A DNA stretch of 36,014 bases from an uncultured Candidatus Cloacimonadota bacterium. GTDB lineage: Bacteria > Cloacimonadota > Cloacimonadia > Cloacimonadales > CAYQPF01. The DNA lies in assembly GCA_964419225.1 (NCBI GenBank), contig CAYQPF010000035.1, forward strand, positions 1 through 36,014, read 5' to 3'. The notes under the pieces are model-generated. The model saw only the letters and a program-made list of their open reading frames with translations, was not told the origin of the DNA and did no database searches. The position numbers and the translations under genes were made by a program. Shown piece by piece: positions 25,035-36,014 of this stretch. The first letter of the stretch is position 1. Each line of letters starts with the position of its first letter.

Positions 25035-25820
25035 CTATAATCCAAATAATTTCTTAAATAATGATTTTTTTGCTTCCGGCTGCTTCTTAAAGCGTTCCGC
25101 TCCAAAATAATTTACTTTTTCGTTTTTCAGCATCTTCATGGGATTGATTTCGGAAAGTAATTTAGCAGTATGATCATTGGTTTCACTCCGAATAGCTTCT
25201 ACTGCATCAACATAACTATAATCCTGTGTATGACAGTGAGTATCAGAACCTAAAAAATGTGCATATCCGTTGTAGATCATTTCCCAGGCAGTATCCTGAA
25301 TCTTCTTGCCATAACCACCCAACAGGCTTCCGGTATTGATCTGCATATAAATATTCCGATGAATCAGATCTTCTACTGCATAGGGATTATTAATAAATTC
25401 TGTATATCTTTCAGGATGAGCCAAAATCGGTTTATAACCCTGTTTTACCAGAATATAATAAATATCGAGCAAACCGTTGGGAAAACCATTCATACTGGTT
25501 TCCATAAGAATATAATTTGTATTATTTAAGGTCAGGTTTTCCTTGATAACATCCAAGTGAATATCTTCACTAAGAAATATTTCTGCACCACGGTAAAGTT
25601 CAATATTTATATTCTCTCTTTGTACTGCATCTTTTAATATCTGAAATTTCACATTTTGAATTTCCGCTGTATTATCATAAAATCCCTTCATGTAATGGGG
25701 AGTCAAAATTACACCTTTAATTCCCTCCTCACTCATAAACTTCAAATAATCTAAAGATGTATCCAGATCCGGAGATCCGTCATCAACATCAAACATAATG
25801 TGAGAATGTATATCAATCAT
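25035..25820 (-). CDS. CpsB/CapC-type PHP-family protein-tyrosine phosphatase (capsular polysaccharide biosynthesis)
   Basis: Diagnostic N-terminus 'MIDIHSHIMFDVDDGSPDL'. Further His/Asp metal ligands are seen in 'LTPHYM', 'LAHPERY' and 'LGSDTH'. The ORF is 261 aa. Confidence 0.85.
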   Translation of the reverse strand: MIDIHSHIMFDVDDGSPDLDTSLDYLKFMSEEGIKGVILTPHYMKGFYDNTAEIQNVKFQILKDAVQRENINIELYRGAEIFLSEDIHLDVIKENLTLNNTNYILMETSMNGFPNGLLDIYYILVKQGYKPILAHPERYTEFINNPYAVEDLIHRNIYMQINTGSLLGGYGKKIQDTAWEMIYNGYAHFLGSDTHCHTQDYSYVDAVEAIRSETNDHTAKLLSEINPMKMLKNEKVNYFGAERFKKQPEAKKSLFKKLFGL

Positions 25821-26572
25821 ATGCCATCCTTACTAATTTGTATTGCCTGAGCAAATTCACTGATTAATGCTTTATCCGGAGTGTTCTCGAAAACAGTCCC
25901 AATCACCACAAAATCTGCTCCGGCTCTTGCTTTACAAGCCGCTTCCTCAGGTGTTTTTATGCCACCCCCGACAATAAGAGGGATTTCAATATTATTTTTT
26001 ACAACGGTAATCATTTCTTCAGGCACAGAGTTTTTAGCTCCGCTTCCGGCTTCCAAATAAACCATTCGCATGCCTAAATACTGCCCGGCTAAAGCATGCG
26101 TCACCGCAATATCAATTTTCTTTCTGGGTATGGGAATACTGTGACTCATGTACTGCACCGAAGTCAAACTGTTGGATTCGATCAACAAATAAGCAGTACC
26201 AATACTTTCCAGATTATACTTTTTAATCAAAGGAGCAGAACGAACCTGTTCTCCTACTAATAATTCCGGATTCCTGCTGCTCAGCATACTTAATAAGAGT
26301 ATTGCATCAGCATATGGAGAAACGAAATTAAACAATCCTGGGAAGATTATTAATGGTATTTTTACCTGCTTTTTTATTTCTCTTAAACACGATTCAAAAT
26401 TATCATGGAGCATCATACTACCACCTATGAGAAGTGCATCTGCCCCACTTTCTTCGCAATCCAAGGCAAAATCTATAGCAGTTCCCTCGCTATGCTTATC
26501 CGGATCGATAAGACAGAAAAACCCAGTTCTTTTCCGGGCAATTTCTAAGAGTTTCTCATATGTTTTTATCAT
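25817..26572 (-). CDS. PcrB/GGGP-synthase family (geranylgeranyl- or heptaprenyl-glyceryl phosphate synthase) TIM-barrel prenyltransferase
   Basis: The ORF is 251 aa with 'FFCLIDPDKHS', 'LLIGGSMM' and a C-terminal 'LIVGGGIKTPEEAACKARAGADFVVIGTVFE' phosphate-binding block. An ATGA overlap joins it to cpsB. Confidence 0.8.
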   Translation of the reverse strand: MIKTYEKLLEIARKRTGFFCLIDPDKHSEGTAIDFALDCEESGADALLIGGSMMLHDNFESCLREIKKQVKIPLIIFPGLFNFVSPYADAILLLSMLSSRNPELLVGEQVRSAPLIKKYNLESIGTAYLLIESNSLTSVQYMSHSIPIPRKKIDIAVTHALAGQYLGMRMVYLEAGSGAKNSVPEEMITVVKNNIEIPLIVGGGIKTPEEAACKARAGADFVVIGTVFENTPDKALISEFAQAIQISKDGI

Positions 26573-26573
26573 A

Positions 26574-27404
26574 TTATTTACCTATCCACATTATTATCAG
26601 GATGAAAAACATATTCAGTTTCATCAAATTAGAGATATAATTCAAATTTTTCTTGGTAACATTTCTGTTCAAAAATAAGTAAGAGATCAACAAAGGCAAA
26701 ATGGTAAAAATATTGAGCAAATTAAAAGTCAGCATCGATATCATTCCATGCCAAAATAGAGAAAAAACACCAATACCCATCGCTAATATCAGCGTAAATG
26801 TAATCGAAAAAGTCCAAGTCTTTCCCATTACAATTGGTATAGTTTTTGCCCCCTGACTCATATCACCTTCCACATCTTCCGTATCCTTGATGATTTCCCG
26901 GATCAATGTATATGTAAAAGCAATAAATGAAATTGCCAGCGCATAACTGACATTATCATTGGCTATTGCCCCGTAAAAGAATGTCGAAGCTGCAGAATAT
27001 GCTATCAACAAATTACCCAACAAAAATGTCTTTTTCAAATATCCTGCATAGACCACTAACAGCAATGTATTCACAACTGCAATTATGATACACCATTTAT
27101 GCCAGGTCAAAACACTCAGAAAAAAACCGGTAATCATCAGAATCCAGGCATACTTTAAAGCCGTACCTGGTGAGATTTTACCAGAAGGTAAAACCCTGTC
27201 TTTTCTGTTTATCTTATCGATTTCCAGATCATAATAATCATTAAGTACATAACCACCTGCTGCTATAAAAGTGGCAGCTAAAGCACTTAAAATTATGACC
27301 CTGATATCAAAAACAGTTGCCTTGATCATTGCCCCATACACTACACATAAAGCAGTAAAAAAGCAATTGAAAGGTCTGATTATCTGCAGAAATGCTTTTA
27401 TCAC
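26574..27404 (-). CDS. UbiA-family prenyltransferase, DGGGP-synthase-like (digeranylgeranylglyceryl phosphate synthase homologue)
   Basis: Eight or nine TM helices. Asp-rich motif 'NDYYDLEIDKINRKDR'. It sits immediately upstream of the PcrB/GGGPS gene, which is the archaeal ether-lipid gene order. Confidence 0.7.
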   Translation of the reverse strand: MIKAFLQIIRPFNCFFTALCVVYGAMIKATVFDIRVIILSALAATFIAAGGYVLNDYYDLEIDKINRKDRVLPSGKISPGTALKYAWILMITGFFLSVLTWHKWCIIIAVVNTLLLVVYAGYLKKTFLLGNLLIAYSAASTFFYGAIANDNVSYALAISFIAFTYTLIREIIKDTEDVEGDMSQGAKTIPIVMGKTWTFSITFTLILAMGIGVFSLFWHGMISMLTFNLLNIFTILPLLISYLFLNRNVTKKNLNYISNLMKLNMFFILIIMWIGK

Positions 27405-28292
27405 TTAAGGTAATCTGTCCTTGATCATGGCGACAAATTCAACCAGTATCTCATTATTATCCATATTCTTGATCATTTTATAGGAATCTTCCAGGAGCTT
27501 TTCTGCTGTCTTGCGTGCCTTATCCAAACCCAATAAGGAAGAATATGTTATCTTATTATTCCGATAATCTTCACCTGGTTCTCTGCCTAAATATTCAAAT
27601 TCACCGATTTCATCCAATATGTCATCTATAACCTGATAAGCTAAACCTAAATTCAATGCATAATTCCCAATTGTGATGGTTATATTATCTTCCGCATCCG
27701 CCATTATGCAGGCCAAATCTGTGGCTGCCTGAAGCAGTGCACCCGTCTTCTTCAAATGAACATATCTCAACACATTGATTCTGACATTCTTGTCCGTCGA
27801 TAAAATATCAACAGCCTGACCACCTATCATTCCCCGTGTTGATACTGCCCGGCACATGGTATTGATGCAGCGTACTGCTTTTTCAGGTTCCTGAACCAAG
27901 GTAAGCATCTCAAATGCTTTGGTGATTAATGCATCCCCGGCAAGTATTGCCGTTGCGGGATCAAACTTCTTGTGGCAGGTCGGCTGTCCTCTTCTCTCAT
28001 CTGAATTATCTACACTCGGTAAATCATCATGAATCAATGAAGCTGTATGGATCATCTCCAATGCACAACCAACAGGCAGAACAGGATTCAGGACATTAGC
28101 ATTCTTCTTGCCTTTCAACATCTCATAAACAGCAAAAAAAAGAATTGGTCTAAGCCTCTTCCCTTCAGAAAATACAGAATATCGCATAGCCTCAAAAAGA
28201 CTTGACGGATTCTCTTTTACCGGAGTCAGATAACTGTCCAGAGCGTCTTCCAATATTTTTTTCCTACTATCAAAGTATTTTTGGATTAACAA
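27405..28292 (-). CDS. Polyprenyl diphosphate synthase (GGPP/FPP synthase, trans-IPPS)
   Basis: FARM 'LIHDDLPSVDNSDERRG' and SARM 'YQVIDDILDE' are present. The ORF is 295 aa. Confidence 0.85.
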   Translation of the reverse strand: MLIQKYFDSRKKILEDALDSYLTPVKENPSSLFEAMRYSVFSEGKRLRPILFFAVYEMLKGKKNANVLNPVLPVGCALEMIHTASLIHDDLPSVDNSDERRGQPTCHKKFDPATAILAGDALITKAFEMLTLVQEPEKAVRCINTMCRAVSTRGMIGGQAVDILSTDKNVRINVLRYVHLKKTGALLQAATDLACIMADAEDNITITIGNYALNLGLAYQVIDDILDEIGEFEYLGREPGEDYRNNKITYSSLLGLDKARKTAEKLLEDSYKMIKNMDNNEILVEFVAMIKDRLP

Positions 28293-30585: not shown

Positions 30586-33132
30586 TTATTTTACTTCCGC
30601 ATCTCCACCTTGTACATTCTTCGGTGTTATCTGTTTAACTAAAAATGCTGATAATAATTCCATTACCCCATTTCCTTCACTTCCACCACTCTGGACAAGA
30701 AAATCAGGAGTTATCTTCACATTACTGCTGGATAATAACTTCGTTACTTCTATGGCTACAAGTCCTTCCGCACCTACAGCATTCTGTTGAAGCTTATATG
30801 CAGCTGCAGTAGCTTCACCTTTTGCCAGAATTGCAGTACCCTCTGCCTTACCTACAAAGGTTATACCATCAGACTCACCCTTCTTCTGCAACCTCACAGC
30901 TTCTGAACTTCCTTCCGCCTCAGTAATAACCTGTGCTTTTATGTTCTGTGCTATCTCTACATTGATGGCAGACTGGACAAGATCTCCCTGCCTGTCTGCT
31001 TCAGCCTTGGTCTTCTCAGTCGCGATACGGCTCTGCTGAGCTTTCTGCTGTTCAACATACATCGTCTGTTCCTGCTGAGCAATAATCTTCTGCGTCTGTG
31101 TATTCATCAGATCCTGAGGTAACTTAATCTGACAAATTAAAACTGAAACCAGCTCTACATGGTATTTTTCCAGTTCACGGCGGGCCCTTTCTTCAGCTTT
31201 TTCCTGTTCCTCATGTCTGTTTTGCATGAAGTTCATTGCTGATGTCGAGGATGCCTGATTCCGGAAACTGGAATCTATCATCGGATGTATAACATGATCC
31301 ACCAAATTCTCGATCGATCCAATCTTTGCCACCATATACGGTGCCTGATCAGGTCTGATTCTGATCACAACTTTTACCGATACACTTATCTCAAAACCAT
31401 CCCTGGAAATTACCTTCAACGGATCAAATTTTGTCGCTTCCTCTTCATCCCAATCTATTGTGATATTGGTTGTATTGACCACATACACTATGAAAGCCCG
31501 ACGGTTCAAATAATATATACCAGGTCCTACAACTTCACTCTGAATACCACGGAATCCTTTGGGAACTACATATCGTTCAATCCCTGCTTTTAGTCTGTCT
31601 TCAAAAATATCTGGTTTCACCGCAGGAACAGTCTCTCCGGCACTCTCATTCAAATCAGTCAGGGTAACAATTCTTTCTTCTTTTTGCTGTTCTGCTTCTG
31701 ATACGATCAGCGAAGCTTTGGGTTCTTCCCCCACATTAGAGATAACCACTGCAACTTCACCTCTCTGAATTGTGGTTACATCATCCTGATCTACAGTAAA
31801 CATTAAAGGATTTATATAATATGTACCTGGCTTAAGCACATCAAGCTGAGGTCCTCTCTGACCACCTTTATCCAAAAATGCCGTTATGTTCTGATAATTA
31901 TTATGCCCTTCTATCGGCTTCGCTACATACTCATTCTCAGGTAAGGGCTCACCATCTCTAGCCGTAACTAACCCAATCTTTGATGCCTGAATTACAGTTG
32001 CATCTTTGATAATTACATTGAATAAGTTAGTATTAACACGGTAAGTACCAGGTAATAAAATCTGGCATTGCGGTCCTTTTTCTCCGTTATTTCTCAAAAA
32101 CTCCTGCCCGTTTTCAAAATTAGAATGCCCCGGCACAACCTTGGCCAACAACCTTCCTTTGGTTATCTGAGCTCCGTCATTGGCTGTAATGACACCAACC
32201 TGACCCTGACCAACCACAATCGCATTTATCGGTTTAACGTTGAATAATTTAGTATTGATCCGGTAATTTCCCGGAGGCAATACTGCGATTTGCGGTCCCT
32301 TCTGCCCACCATTGTCCAGGAACATCTTGCCATCCTGGAAAGAATTACATTCTGCATCCTCTGCAAAAATCCTTCCTGCCGGTACCGGATTACCGTCTAT
32401 CGATTCCACAAGACCAATTTTACCTTCACCGATTGACGTTACTTCCACAACTGTTACGATAAATAGTCTCGTATTGATACGATAATTACCGGGAGGTAAA
32501 ATTCCTATTTGCGGTCCTTTCTGACCTTTGTTTTCAAAGAATTTCCGTCCGTCTTGAAACAGATTACAGTCCACATGCTTGGCAAAAATCCTTCCCGGAG
32601 GTACTGATTCACCGTCTATCGACTCTACCAGCCCTATCCTGCCTTCCCCGATTGTTATTACAGAATGAATTGTGACCTGAAACATTCTGGTATTTATTCT
32701 ATAAGTTCCAGGAGGTAAGATATCAACCTGCGGTCCTTGCTGACCGTTATTGTTCAAGAAGGCTTCACCATCCTGAAAATAATTCGATTCCACAGGTTCA
32801 GCAAAAATGCGACCCTTTGGTACCGGAATACCGGTTCTGGATTCTACAAGACCGATCTGATTATCTCCGATGATCACAAAATTAACTTTCTCCGACACAA
32901 AAATGTAAGGAACTACAAAGTGTAAACCGGGTCCAAGTGTCTTTACCTGAACACCAACTTCGCCACTCATAGCAAAAACACGGCCTTCAGGCATACTCTT
33001 ACCAAACCAGCGACGCTCCAATATCCGGATATTATTACCGCCTACCACTATAAAAGATTTGATAATGGTTATCAGCAGTATCAAGGCTCCCAGTCCGATC
33101 AGAATGTTCGTAAATGTCATCAATTCTAACAT
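30586..33132 (-). CDS. Flotillin-like SPFH/band-7 membrane protein, carrying an N-terminal array of five ~75-aa tandem repeats upstream of the SPFH and 'flotillin' coiled-coil (EA-rich) regions
   Basis: N-terminal TM helix. The repeat unit 'IGLVES.DG.PVP.GRIFA....CN.FQDG..F..N.GQKGPQ...LPPG.YRINT.LF.V' occurs 5 times. It resembles the start of YqiK-type SPFH domains. The C-terminal EA/Q-rich coiled coil is typical of flotillins. SD AGAGAGG lies upstream. Confidence 0.7.
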   Translation of the reverse strand: MLELMTFTNILIGLGALILLITIIKSFIVVGGNNIRILERRWFGKSMPEGRVFAMSGEVGVQVKTLGPGLHFVVPYIFVSEKVNFVIIGDNQIGLVESRTGIPVPKGRIFAEPVESNYFQDGEAFLNNNGQQGPQVDILPPGTYRINTRMFQVTIHSVITIGEGRIGLVESIDGESVPPGRIFAKHVDCNLFQDGRKFFENKGQKGPQIGILPPGNYRINTRLFIVTVVEVTSIGEGKIGLVESIDGNPVPAGRIFAEDAECNSFQDGKMFLDNGGQKGPQIAVLPPGNYRINTKLFNVKPINAIVVGQGQVGVITANDGAQITKGRLLAKVVPGHSNFENGQEFLRNNGEKGPQCQILLPGTYRVNTNLFNVIIKDATVIQASKIGLVTARDGEPLPENEYVAKPIEGHNNYQNITAFLDKGGQRGPQLDVLKPGTYYINPLMFTVDQDDVTTIQRGEVAVVISNVGEEPKASLIVSEAEQQKEERIVTLTDLNESAGETVPAVKPDIFEDRLKAGIERYVVPKGFRGIQSEVVGPGIYYLNRRAFIVYVVNTTNITIDWDEEEATKFDPLKVISRDGFEISVSVKVVIRIRPDQAPYMVAKIGSIENLVDHVIHPMIDSSFRNQASSTSAMNFMQNRHEEQEKAEERARRELEKYHVELVSVLICQIKLPQDLMNTQTQKIIAQQEQTMYVEQQKAQQSRIATEKTKAEADRQGDLVQSAINVEIAQNIKAQVITEAEGSSEAVRLQKKGESDGITFVGKAEGTAILAKGEATAAAYKLQQNAVGAEGLVAIEVTKLLSSSNVKITPDFLVQSGGSEGNGVMELLSAFLVKQITPKNVQGGDAEVK

Positions 33133-33669
33133 AATACCTCTCTAAATGAACTTAATTTATAGTTTCAATAGTACAATCATTGATTTATGTCAAGAAAATT
33201 GATAATTTCTTTTTGCGTGCTGGCAGAAAATTGAAAAGTGTCACAAGATTTGCAAATTTGGTCACCTCTAAAGTTGGGACTACAAGATTCCTTGTGGACC
33301 AATACAAAATAATCCATAACTTTTATTAAACTTCTACATATTTTGAATCTCTTTTTTTACTAACTTACTCTCCTGTTTTAATTTATTAACACTGTCAAGG
33401 TATAATATATTACTTTAATTTATTATATAGCAACATGTTAATTCCCCTCTATCAAGAGGGGTGGCAACGAAGTTGACGGGGTGTGTAAATCCAAAACCCT
33501 GTTTGCTATCATTAAACTTATACCATTTTTCAGATTATTCTCTTTAAACTTTGAACTAATTTCACAAACAGAATCAAGTAGTGTCCAAAATATTAACCTC
33601 CATTCGAAAAATACTCTCAGAAAAACTACTCCGTAAATAGAGTTTTCCCCAACTAATAACTCAATTCTG

Positions 33670-34092
33670 CTAATTTATAACTAACATGTGGGAGAGTTCA
33701 ATCGCTCTTGCACCAGTCTGCTTTGCCCATTTAGTAGTCAGCATCTGGTTAGCAGCTTTTTCAAACTCTCCAGATTTGACAAAACTAAGAGTGGTCTTAA
33801 ACTGCAATAGTCCTTTAATTCCAAGGTTGAAACACATATCCAGAAGCACCAGTTTACGGTTTTCTGAGAGGTTGTTGTAGATATCAGGAATGCTGGAAAT
33901 AAGCTCCAACTCACATCGCAAAATATCATTTTGAAGCAGTTCTTTGGCTTCCTGCTTTGAAATCCCTCAGTCTTCAAGATTACGACTGACTCCGATGGTC
34001 AGTTTACCTGATGTGCAGCGATACGGCTTAAGTCTCAAACCTTCATGCCTGATGAGTTGCTCTTTGACTCTAACTAATAAGCTCTGTTCCAT
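33670..34092 (-). pseudogene. T4-type (GH24) phage lysozyme gene interrupted by one in-frame TGA at 33967-33969
   Basis: The minus-strand frame reads 'MEQSLLVRVKEQLIRHEGLRLKPYRCTSGKLTIGVSRNLED*GISKQEAKELL...NRKLVLLDMCFNLG...KWAKQTGARAIEL'. This aligns along its whole length to T4 lysozyme ('[25 protein letters not shown]', 'RRCALINMVFQMG', 'SRWYNQTPNRAKRV'). GGAG lies 7 nt upstream of the ATG. Confidence 0.7.
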
Positions 34093-34322
34093 CTATACTC
34101 CAAATGTTATATTCAGAGTGATAGGAACCTGCTGCTGGTAATTTTATCAAATCGGCTTGCCTATGGATGCCACAGAAATTATCATTGACAGATGGTGTTT
34201 GCTCAGATTAATGTTAGCTAATTAAGAGCTTAAATTTGAGTCTATATTTTACGATCAAGCATGATCATATAGATATCAAATGAGTAGGAGTGGGAGGATG
34301 CATGATAAAGCTGTAGCGATGA

Positions 34323-34514
34323 TATCTATACCGCAGCTTGGTACAATGGGCTAAGCCAGCCAATGAACTATGTATATTTGATATGCACGACAACGTATGG
34401 GAGTGGAATTGGGACATTCATGGTAGCTATCCCAGCACTCAGGGTAACCAGCATAGTGCCCTGAGCAGGTCACTTAGTGCAATTCAAACGATCTATGAAA
34501 TATGCTGCAAATGA
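34323..34514 (+). pseudogene. Remnant (C-terminal fragment) of an FGE-sulfatase/SUMF1-domain gene
   Basis: A 63-codon open frame reads '...AKPANELCIFDMHDNVWEWNWDIHGSYPSTQGN...'. It matches the 'LGLYDMSGNMEEWCWDWHGKF' block of the 17..2212 protein and the canonical FGE 'YDMxGNVWEW' signature. There is no start codon and no upstream domain. Confidence 0.5.
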
Positions 34515-34570
34515 TCCAAAAAAAAGAATTGAGACTTGAGTTACGTACCTAAGTCAGAAAGGTTGGGTAG

Positions 34571-35614
34571 ATGTTAAATATTATTCGCATTACTCTTAAG
34601 AATCATCCTAAATTAAAAGATATAGACATATTGGGTGAAGATTTAGCTAAATCTCTTGATGCCTCAAAAGAAAATGCTGAACTTCTTGATCTTATATGTG
34701 ATTGTATGTACCATAGCGTAAGGCATTTTTTGGAAACTCCCTTTGGTGCAAGTACCTTCGAACTAACTGTCCATTTTATTGATGCCTATGGAAGAGAGTT
34801 AATAAGAACGTATCGGGATTATCAATATACACAAAGTACACTACCAGACATTCGAAATATGCATAAGGCAGATACAGATCAAGTGATCGATAGATTATTT
34901 GTTATTATTGTTGATAAAATTTTCCAGTTGTACTATCGACATTATGTCATTCCTGTTTACGAGGTAACTGATTTCGAAGGTGATCACTTCGCAGCTTCAA
35001 GTTTTATAATTAATCATAATAATAAAAATTATCTACTTACAGCAAAGCATGTTTACTTCGATATGGATAAAGAACAACCTGTTTTGCTATCTGATAGGTC
35101 TTATTGTTTTGGATGTAAAAGAGAGGCTATAGATATCTCCAAATCTATATATACAAAAGTGCATTTACCAGATTTTATTATTATTCCTATCGATAACCAA
35201 CTAACAAGAGAGATTATAGGTGATAATTTTCAAATAATCCCCGATAATCTCATTGATAAGTCAAAGTCTGAGACAAAAGGCCCTTTGATTTGTCACGGTT
35301 TTCCATATTCAAGGAATAAAAAACATTGGACACCAAGGCAAGACGTTTATATTCTAGGCACTTATGTGAAGTTTGATGAATGTAGTTTTGGTTTGACTTA
35401 TGATATAGAAAATACTAAACGTATGAATGGAACTATTGGAGCAGGTGTATCAACTCCTGGTATGAGCGGTTGTCCAATTTGGGAATTGTCCCTACTAAAT
35501 CTGATTACTAAATTTTCGCTAAAAGGTTTGTTTACAGGTTATTACAAAGAATTAAAAAAGAATAGGGGTGAGTACATCTATAAAGCCATTGAATATATTG
35601 ATAATCAGGTTTAA
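34571..35614 (+). CDS. Intracellular trypsin-like (S1/chymotrypsin-fold) serine peptidase with an uncharacterised ~130-aa N-terminal domain
   Basis: The ORF is 347 aa with no signal peptide. Catalytic-triad contexts are 'NYLLTAKHV' (His), 'LPDFIIIPID' (Asp) and 'GVSTPGMSGCPIWE' (GxSGxP Ser). The region is more AT-rich than the window's core genes. Confidence 0.6.
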   Translation: MLNIIRITLKNHPKLKDIDILGEDLAKSLDASKENAELLDLICDCMYHSVRHFLETPFGASTFELTVHFIDAYGRELIRTYRDYQYTQSTLPDIRNMHKADTDQVIDRLFVIIVDKIFQLYYRHYVIPVYEVTDFEGDHFAASSFIINHNNKNYLLTAKHVYFDMDKEQPVLLSDRSYCFGCKREAIDISKSIYTKVHLPDFIIIPIDNQLTREIIGDNFQIIPDNLIDKSKSETKGPLICHGFPYSRNKKHWTPRQDVYILGTYVKFDECSFGLTYDIENTKRMNGTIGAGVSTPGMSGCPIWELSLLNLITKFSLKGLFTGYYKELKKNRGEYIYKAIEYIDNQV

Positions 35615-35671
35615 AGAAATCTTCAATTCATTCGCATGAACTAAGTAAGTTCATAAACTTATCACAATAGC

Positions 35672-35950
35672 TCAATCAATATAATCTATGAATTGCACCT
35701 GAGCATCGTTTAATCCCAGCCTGAGACATCGGGAAGTGTAAGACTTGGTCTCTTTCATTACTTCTGCTGAGAACTCATCTCCAAGCTGATTTGATACTAT
35801 TTCCATTAGTTTCCGGAGATGCTCACTTGATACCTTTTCTGACTTCGGCATATCTGATAGCATTTTAATGGTTATTCTGGCAGATTCTCTGTTATTAAGA
35901 TGTAACAAGTTAAGATCTTTTGACCCGGATTGTGCAGTAGAGGTTTGCAA
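35672..35950 (-). CDS. Hypothetical small protein (92 aa), convergent with the trypsin-like protease gene
   Basis: ORF only. No recognisable motif. Confidence 0.25.
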   Translation of the reverse strand: MQTSTAQSGSKDLNLLHLNNRESARITIKMLSDMPKSEKVSSEHLRKLMEIVSNQLGDEFSAEVMKETKSYTSRCLRLGLNDAQVQFIDYID

Positions 35951-36014
35951 ACTGGGTCAAAGATCGTGAAGAATGAAGGTTTGCAATCGAACGAGGTTAT
36001 ATAATAAATATATG

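Follow-up and report, generated by a model that had tools for sequence, protein, structure and literature searches.

Defective lambdoid prophages of E. coli K-12 contain stranded lysozyme genes, which are what remains when prophages erode by deletion and point mutation. Phage lysozymes of the GH24 family include T4 lysozyme (gene e) and P22 gp19, as well as the short P22-like 'endolysin/autolysin' class. In the T4 and P22 lysozymes, D20C and D20A are reported to be the sole substitutions at position 20 that keep hydrolytic activity, and both are well represented in phage sequences (bioRxiv 10.1101/418723, on the co-opted GH24 domain SpmX). A different kind of precedent is relevant to lysozyme frames that contain an in-frame TGA: bacterial selenoprotein genes combine a UGA with an adjacent SECIS hairpin, and a distinct 'Cloacimonetes type' of tRNA-Sec has been described (PMC5330540).

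The window analysed here, i.e. the whole stretch of 36,014 nucleotides of the Candidatus Cloacimonadota contig CAYQPF010000035.1, harbors a 141-codon lysozyme frame with one in-frame TGA on the reverse strand (Table 1). We put at roughly 90% the probability that this frame is a recently inactivated endolysin pseudogene in the remnant of a member of a Cloacimonadota temperate-phage family. The joined translation, read across the TGA, matches the Pfam family PF00959 (Phage_lysozyme) with an E-value of 2.2e-14 and 54.3 bits (cut-off 22.3), covering most of the profile (positions 2-113 of 125), and the endolysin family PHROG 7 with an E-value of 5e-19. Searched against the PDB, it retrieves several hundred T4 lysozyme (T4L) chains, the top one being that of the D20C mutant (PDB identifier 1qtz, E=2e-12). 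A protein search yielded 2368 relatives, the closest two of which share 82% (P0001) and 80% (P0002/L081) identity with the query; the best 120 of these 2368 are 140-152 residues long, nearly all 140 or 141, and the source-named entries among the same 120 are mostly from Cloacimonadota (Cloacimonetes) metagenome-assembled genomes (MAGs). The comparison with GH24 lysozymes that a first-pass annotation of this DNA had asked for is therefore significant both for the family profile and for the T4L structures (E about 1e-12), and it confirms, far beyond chance, a predicted GH24 lysozyme homologue. The same annotation had described an end-to-end alignment with T4 lysozyme. Both halves of the frame, on either side of the codon 42 stop, do align, but they do so in two stretches (query 11-40 with T4L 5-34 and query 29-130 with T4L 44-146), and the region of T4L past residue 146 is without a counterpart in the shorter product (140 residues versus 164). 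The frame differs from a regular family member in being interrupted by the TGA at codon 42 and in lacking the native C-terminus, its last six codons being foreign.

The active-site positions are retained, with Glu17, Cys26 and Thr32 at T4L positions 11, 20 and 26, respectively. The catalytic Glu had been placed in 'IRHEG' from the DNA letters alone, and it is this Glu that aligns with T4L E11. The replacement of Asp20 by Cys in 'YRCTSG' had likewise been read correctly, but its being singled out as noteworthy finds no support, as Cys is present at this position in 18 of the 18 first aligned relatives, in 144 of the 161 loci from genomes and metagenomes, and in all 80 viral loci. Judged by these alignments, Cys26 is the normal residue of this lysozyme family and neither a peculiarity nor a defect.

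Table 1. Features of the lysozyme remnant and its surroundings (positions within the 36,014-nt window)
Feature	Position	Strand	Remarks
GH24 (T4/P22-type) endolysin, probable pseudogene	34092..33670	-	140 codons + TAG; PF00959 match
Codon 17, catalytic Glu, equivalent to T4L E11, in 'IRHEG'	34042..34044	-	T4L alignment; invariant in alignment A1
Codon 26, Cys at the T4L Asp20 position	34015..34017	-	Aligned with Cys20 of 1qtz
Codon 32, Thr at the T4L Thr26 position ('LTIG')	33997..33999	-	T4L alignment; invariant in alignment A1
In-frame TGA, codon 42, probable disabling nonsense codon	33969..33967	-	Sole internal stop of the 141-codon frame
Aberrant 3' tail (…HMLVIN*), past the homology breakpoint	33670..33688	-	Stands in place of the (L/M)MRKG end
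GGAG ribosome-binding site	34098..34101	-	5 nt before the ATG; conserved in aligned leaders of relatives
Conserved 5' region (promoter-like and leader), travels with the lysozyme gene	34093..34206	-	Alignment of 33 loci
Upstream box TGTCAA-N8-TCTGTGGCA of the lysozyme-led operon	34168..34190	-	Conserved
347-aa ORF in the variable 'cargo' slot between two element fragments	34571..35614	+	Not seen beside other lysozyme copies
Upstream partner gene, internal fragment (residues 24-89 of 291)	35694..35887	-	Inside ORF 35672-35950

That codon 42 is TGA, as had been noted earlier, is evident from the sequence, and the question arises whether it is real. It could be a sequencing or assembly error in a gene that in reality has Cys at codon 42, given that the change amounts to one base and that the Logan contigs of this organism reach just 2-3 kb, possibly a sign of low coverage. 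We consider this very unlikely. In a second assembly, made by Logan from run SRR13723396, a 2331-bp contig matches positions 33462-35792 of the window with 100% identity, TGA included; the change is a substitution and lies outside any homopolymer; and the copy carries an independent lesion at its 3' end and is missing its operon, a setting in which nonsense mutations are found in seven of 80 other copies. Were the base call wrong, the locus would nonetheless be a remnant on account of its 3' lesion and its lost operon.

The origin of the TGA as a point mutation can be traced by comparison with the nearest relatives. In both of these, L169 and L081, which are located on one long contig, codon 42 is TGT (Cys), so that a single T-to-A transversion of this probable ancestral codon would have given the TGA. 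The codon corresponds to a site close to T4L Gly56 and lies apart from the three active-site positions. When the window copy is compared with L169 or L081, dN/dS comes to 0.05-0.10 both before and after the stop, as low as that between the two intact genes themselves (0.068 for L169 versus L081), suggesting that the stop is young relative to the divergence (dS about 0.5). Among 46 columns with a conservation of 95% or more, the window copy deviates, beyond the changes shared within its lineage, only by G36S and the tail, and its lineage-specific replacements number only about five. The stop at codon 42 would yield a peptide of at most 41 residues, and we infer that this copy is not expressed as a full-length protein. 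Since a low dN/dS fits a young pseudogene and a still-translated gene alike, readings in which the TGA is recoded retain a small residual probability.

Among the latter, we tested selenocysteine, because the TGA aligns with Cys and the phylum has a tRNA-Sec; the gene would then be a selenoprotein variant of a lysozyme with Cys at the position of codon 42. As in bacterial selenoprotein genes, the UGA lies opposite the Cys of the nearest homologues (14 of 18 close homologues and both nearest relatives) in a phylum with a known tRNA-Sec (PMC5330540), a 6-bp stem (AAGCAG/CUGCUU) with a G opening its loop is found from 12 nt past the UGA, and dN/dS is still low 3' of the stop. Unlike in those genes, the site is variable: over 161 loci the column contains C 51, R 38, V 20, L 16, N 12, K 9, M 8 and others, and over the best 80 of 518 viral loci R 43, C 28, N 4, K 4 and S 1. 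It is also not one of the three active-site positions, and a stop is observed in this column in none of the 241 homologous loci (161 + 80). Nor does a SECIS-like structure rise above background, as the 63 nt past the TGA have a minimum free energy of -8.7 kcal/mol (z=+0.64), with 149 of 200 shuffled sequences folding at least as well, and fold worse than the equivalent stretch in 90% of 137 homologues with a sense codon. Rfam searches of the whole window found nothing at the gathering threshold. Moreover, the native 3' end of the gene and the operon following it are gone. Thus, of the features of selenoprotein genes looked for here, viz., a conserved Cys, a SECIS stem-loop 3' of the UGA and recurrence of the UGA in orthologues, none was found, and we reject selenocysteine as extremely improbable in view of the variable column, the lack of recurrence and the lack of structure above background. 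A TGA opposite Cys in the nearest homologues is hence insufficient to call selenocysteine, and column conservation, stop recurrence and downstream RNA structure should be checked before such a call.

A leaky or conditionally suppressed stop would be another way of keeping the gene in use, with a little regulated full-length lysozyme being made either by a read-through lysis gene, as the first-pass annotation had proposed, or by a domesticated, attenuated lysin. The upstream box, leader, ribosome-binding site and start codon are all intact, few additional substitutions have accumulated, and co-option of an attenuated GH24 domain is known from SpmX (bioRxiv 10.1101/418723). However, neither the folding of the stretch past the TGA nor Rfam gives a recoding signal, the stop does not recur, and neither the genes that lie 3' of the lysozyme in intact relatives nor other lysis or phage genes were found nearby. 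Other stranded copies contain stops of all three types at other positions, which argues for random decay and not for a programme. TGA is also a normal terminator within the window, where it ends 12 of 28 long ORFs, and read-through of this kind appears highly improbable to us. The same count, together with the long ORFs being intact under table 11, leads us to reject an alternative genetic code. 

The state of the relatives provides the context for reading the frame as an endolysin pseudogene. In intact elements, the lysozyme leads a conserved module: three small genes follow it, then come a portal (PF04860) and a fusion of protease and capsid (Peptidase_S78_2), and after these four small head genes and two Dam-type methylases. 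For example, in L081, L164, L166-168 and L169, small proteins of 110-152, 139-163 and 68-136 residues are followed by PF04860, Peptidase_S78_2 and two MethyltransfD12 genes. The gene after the lysozyme overlaps the lysozyme stop in the intact loci, and tblastn over all loci places this gene at +422 nt in the majority of Cloacimonadota copies. A relative is encoded on 518 viral contigs of IMG/VR; the best 80 of these 518 (L170-L249) are about 5-42 kb in length with the lysozyme well inside in most, and have the next gene in 79 and the portal in 75 cases within 3 kb. Several MAGs hold multiple copies of the lysozyme. Based on these gene neighborhoods, the lysozyme family is the predicted endolysin of temperate phages of Cloacimonadota. 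The context points to a prophage family that is widespread and multi-copy in this phylum, in which the head module led by the lysozyme is conserved, the upstream box is highly specific, and a variable slot frequently contains defence genes.

In contrast to the intact relatives, in which the lysozyme lies among phage structural or lysis genes, the window has no such neighbors, and tblastn detected no head-module genes in it. The nucleotide similarity to L169, L081 and L084 stops at 33689-33691, within the lysozyme frame, and where most of the 81 relatives counted have a C-terminus of the (L/M)MRKG type, the last six codons of the window copy read HMLVIN. The gene had been described earlier as complete and otherwise intact; this does not hold, as its 3' end is replaced past about codon 135 and the operon downstream is gone. 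On the other side of the variable slot, only a fragment of the partner gene remains. In L169, this gene (94-969, 291 aa) gives a faint match to Phage_Mu_F, and in L081, L084, L085, L092 and L034 it likewise lies upstream of the lysozyme, at a distance of 1-10 kb. The fragment in the window is 91% identical to it in amino acids and 88% in nucleotides, with the similarity stopping at both ends. Compared with L169 as the closest intact element, nucleotide similarity is thus confined to 34017-33689 (lysozyme nt 76-404, 89%) and 35887-35694 (88%), and the surviving element measures about 2.2 kb (33689-35887). As the module is present in relatives and absent here, and the partner gene is only a fragment, the locus was filed as a remnant. 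The earlier suggestion of a recent inactivation in a prophage remnant is well supported by the presence of intact relatives in prophages, the scraps found here and the low dN/dS before and after the stop.

Ordinary chromosome makes up the 33 kb left of the remnant, with housekeeping functions such as recO, a polyA-polymerase/CCA-type nucleotidyltransferase, a serpin, MoxR, sugar epimerases, a PcrB/UbiA/polyprenyl-synthase cluster and an SPFH protein. The 36-kb window contains no tRNA or tmRNA genes and hence no clue of this kind to an att site, and a repeat search found no convincing direct repeats flanking the remnant. The lysozyme gene itself shows affinities to two lineages. Its leader and first about 75 nt (34018-34206) most resemble the L009/L088/L084 lineage (85-91%), and for the remainder of the gene (33689-34017) the best match is the L169/L081 lineage (87-89%). 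The window copy is thus a recombinant mosaic, as phage genes usually are.

Comparable decay is common in this lysozyme family. In-frame stops (TAA, TAG or TGA) are present in seven of 80 chromosomal copies from bacterial genome assemblies, at positions 10, 11, 58, 63, 110 or 111, and in none of the best 80 of the 518 viral copies, and several chromosomal copies are without the downstream module (for example, L039, L043 and L044). The stop-bearing, inserted and module-less copies form a graded decay series of the prophage family in Cloacimonadota MAGs, and the window copy fits the random erosion of stranded copies. In this connection we note that L031, L032, L035, L050, L055, L058 and L062 have in-frame stops at other places or, in the case of L055 and L058, an insertion. 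Most probably, in the window a deletion or recombination removed everything 3' of about codon 135 of the lysozyme and also took most of the partner gene beyond the cargo slot, leaving the present remnant in ordinary chromosome. The TGT-to-TGA transversion at codon 42 then plausibly made the stop in the already stranded copy. We infer this order, the 3' loss coming before the stop.

The region upstream of the frame, by comparison, is well preserved. The clear ribosome-binding site reported by the first-pass annotation is indeed there (Table 1). Over 86-114 nt, the conserved 5' region shares 85-91% identity with the corresponding stretch in L009, L088, L090, L091 and L084. The box within it is present at the same position in L001-L062, L084-L092 and L164-L168; searched as TGTCAA-N7-9-TYTNTNKCA in 1.49 Mb of loci, 48 of its 50 matches are located 75-89 nt upstream of a lysozyme start. 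In most loci the box is followed by GCATCC-N4-GCATCC and TTTG. In the window it is followed by a good extended -10 element (TGATAAAAT, 34149-34141), with no -35 hexamer. Scanning for sigma-70 promoters and terminators gave no signal above chance, and the strand of the gene showed no canonical promoter. A box with an extended -10 and without a -35 would fit an activator-dependent phage late promoter, a suggestion drawn from the motifs. It is conceivable that, in a Cloacimonadota host that uses Sec, with the UGA decoded as selenocysteine or read through in another way, the stranded lysozyme is still made from its own promoter-like box and leader. We regard this as exceedingly unlikely; if true, the product would perhaps act as a domesticated hydrolase of the wall, with Cys26 and Sec42 as a redox pair.

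With regard to RNA structure in the leaders, an anti-SD-like CUCC lies some 15-45 nt upstream (34114-34119 in the window) and might base-pair with the GGAG (34096-34101), and one apparent compensatory change is seen between lineages (ACUCC/GGAGU versus GCUCC/GGAGC). Over alignment A2 this pairing has almost no covariation and the largest lineage does not fit it, and RNAalifold gave no consensus structure for 36 leaders. A sub-threshold Rfam match to SNORD44, a eukaryotic snoRNA, is located at 34201-34263 on the reverse strand (28.5 bits versus a gathering threshold of 40, E=0.005) and is the single match with an E-value of up to 1 over 33000-36014. We take it to be a chance match in AT-rich non-coding DNA.

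Between the faint Mu-F-like gene and the lysozyme, the intact elements harbor a slot (986-9853 in L169, 48-9839 in L166, 1882-9702 in L164 and 2577-9828 in L081), the cargo of which differs per element, is often defence-like and is mostly encoded on the opposite strand. Examples include a Gabija-like pair of AAA_15/OLD-TOPRIM and UvrD helicase genes accompanied by an Eco57I-type methylase, a type I restriction-modification system, Trypco1, and a DEAD helicase with methylases and MazG. From its gene content, the slot looks like a prophage defence hotspot. In the window it is occupied by the 347-aa ORF, which has no match in Pfam or PHROG and a weak PADLOC match to LmuA, a Lamassu effector (E=6e-6, residues 142-304). 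This ORF also contains a GMSGCP motif that is reminiscent of the GDSGGP of serine proteases.

Two other loci of the surrounding chromosome are worth recording. Genes for a PcrB family protein (GGGP-synthase-like), a UbiA prenyltransferase and a polyprenyl synthetase are adjacent at 25817-28292 on the reverse strand. Such a set is presumably the one proposed to give bacteria of the FCB group, including Cloacimonetes, archaeal-type ether-lipid potential, and it would fit a Cloacimonadota origin of the contig. At 30586-33132, also on the reverse strand, an 848-aa SPFH/Band 7 protein is encoded, the homologues of which, at 56-67% identity, are widespread across phyla; its N-terminal half contains several tandem repeats of roughly 95 residues (…GRIFA…FQDG…GGQKGPQ..ILPPGNYRINT…) before the Band 7 domain.

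The locus is an ordinary decayed prophage lysis gene that matters little in itself, and it should be annotated as a pseudogene, neither as a pair of small ORFs nor as a selenoprotein candidate. With T4 lysozyme and P22 gp19 it shares, by sequence, the GH24 fold family, with the catalytic Glu and the equivalent of Thr26 in place, and it differs from T4 lysozyme by the Cys for Asp20, the stop at codon 42 and the foreign C-terminal tail of a pseudogene. It resembles the short P22-like 'endolysin/autolysin' class in length and domain layout, and its intact relatives are prophage-encoded. The nearest comparison is with the prophage lysozymes of Cloacimonadota (P0001, P0002/L081, P0241/L169 and L170-L249), to which it is related by 80-82% amino-acid identity (P0001, P0002), by the same box and leader, and by the same partner gene across a variable cargo slot; in those genes the frame is uninterrupted, the end is (L/M)MRKG and the portal/capsid module comes next, whereas the window copy has none of these three features. 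The endolysins of the defective prophages of E. coli K-12 differ from it in belonging to another host phylum and another phage family, and here about 2.2 kb of the element survives.
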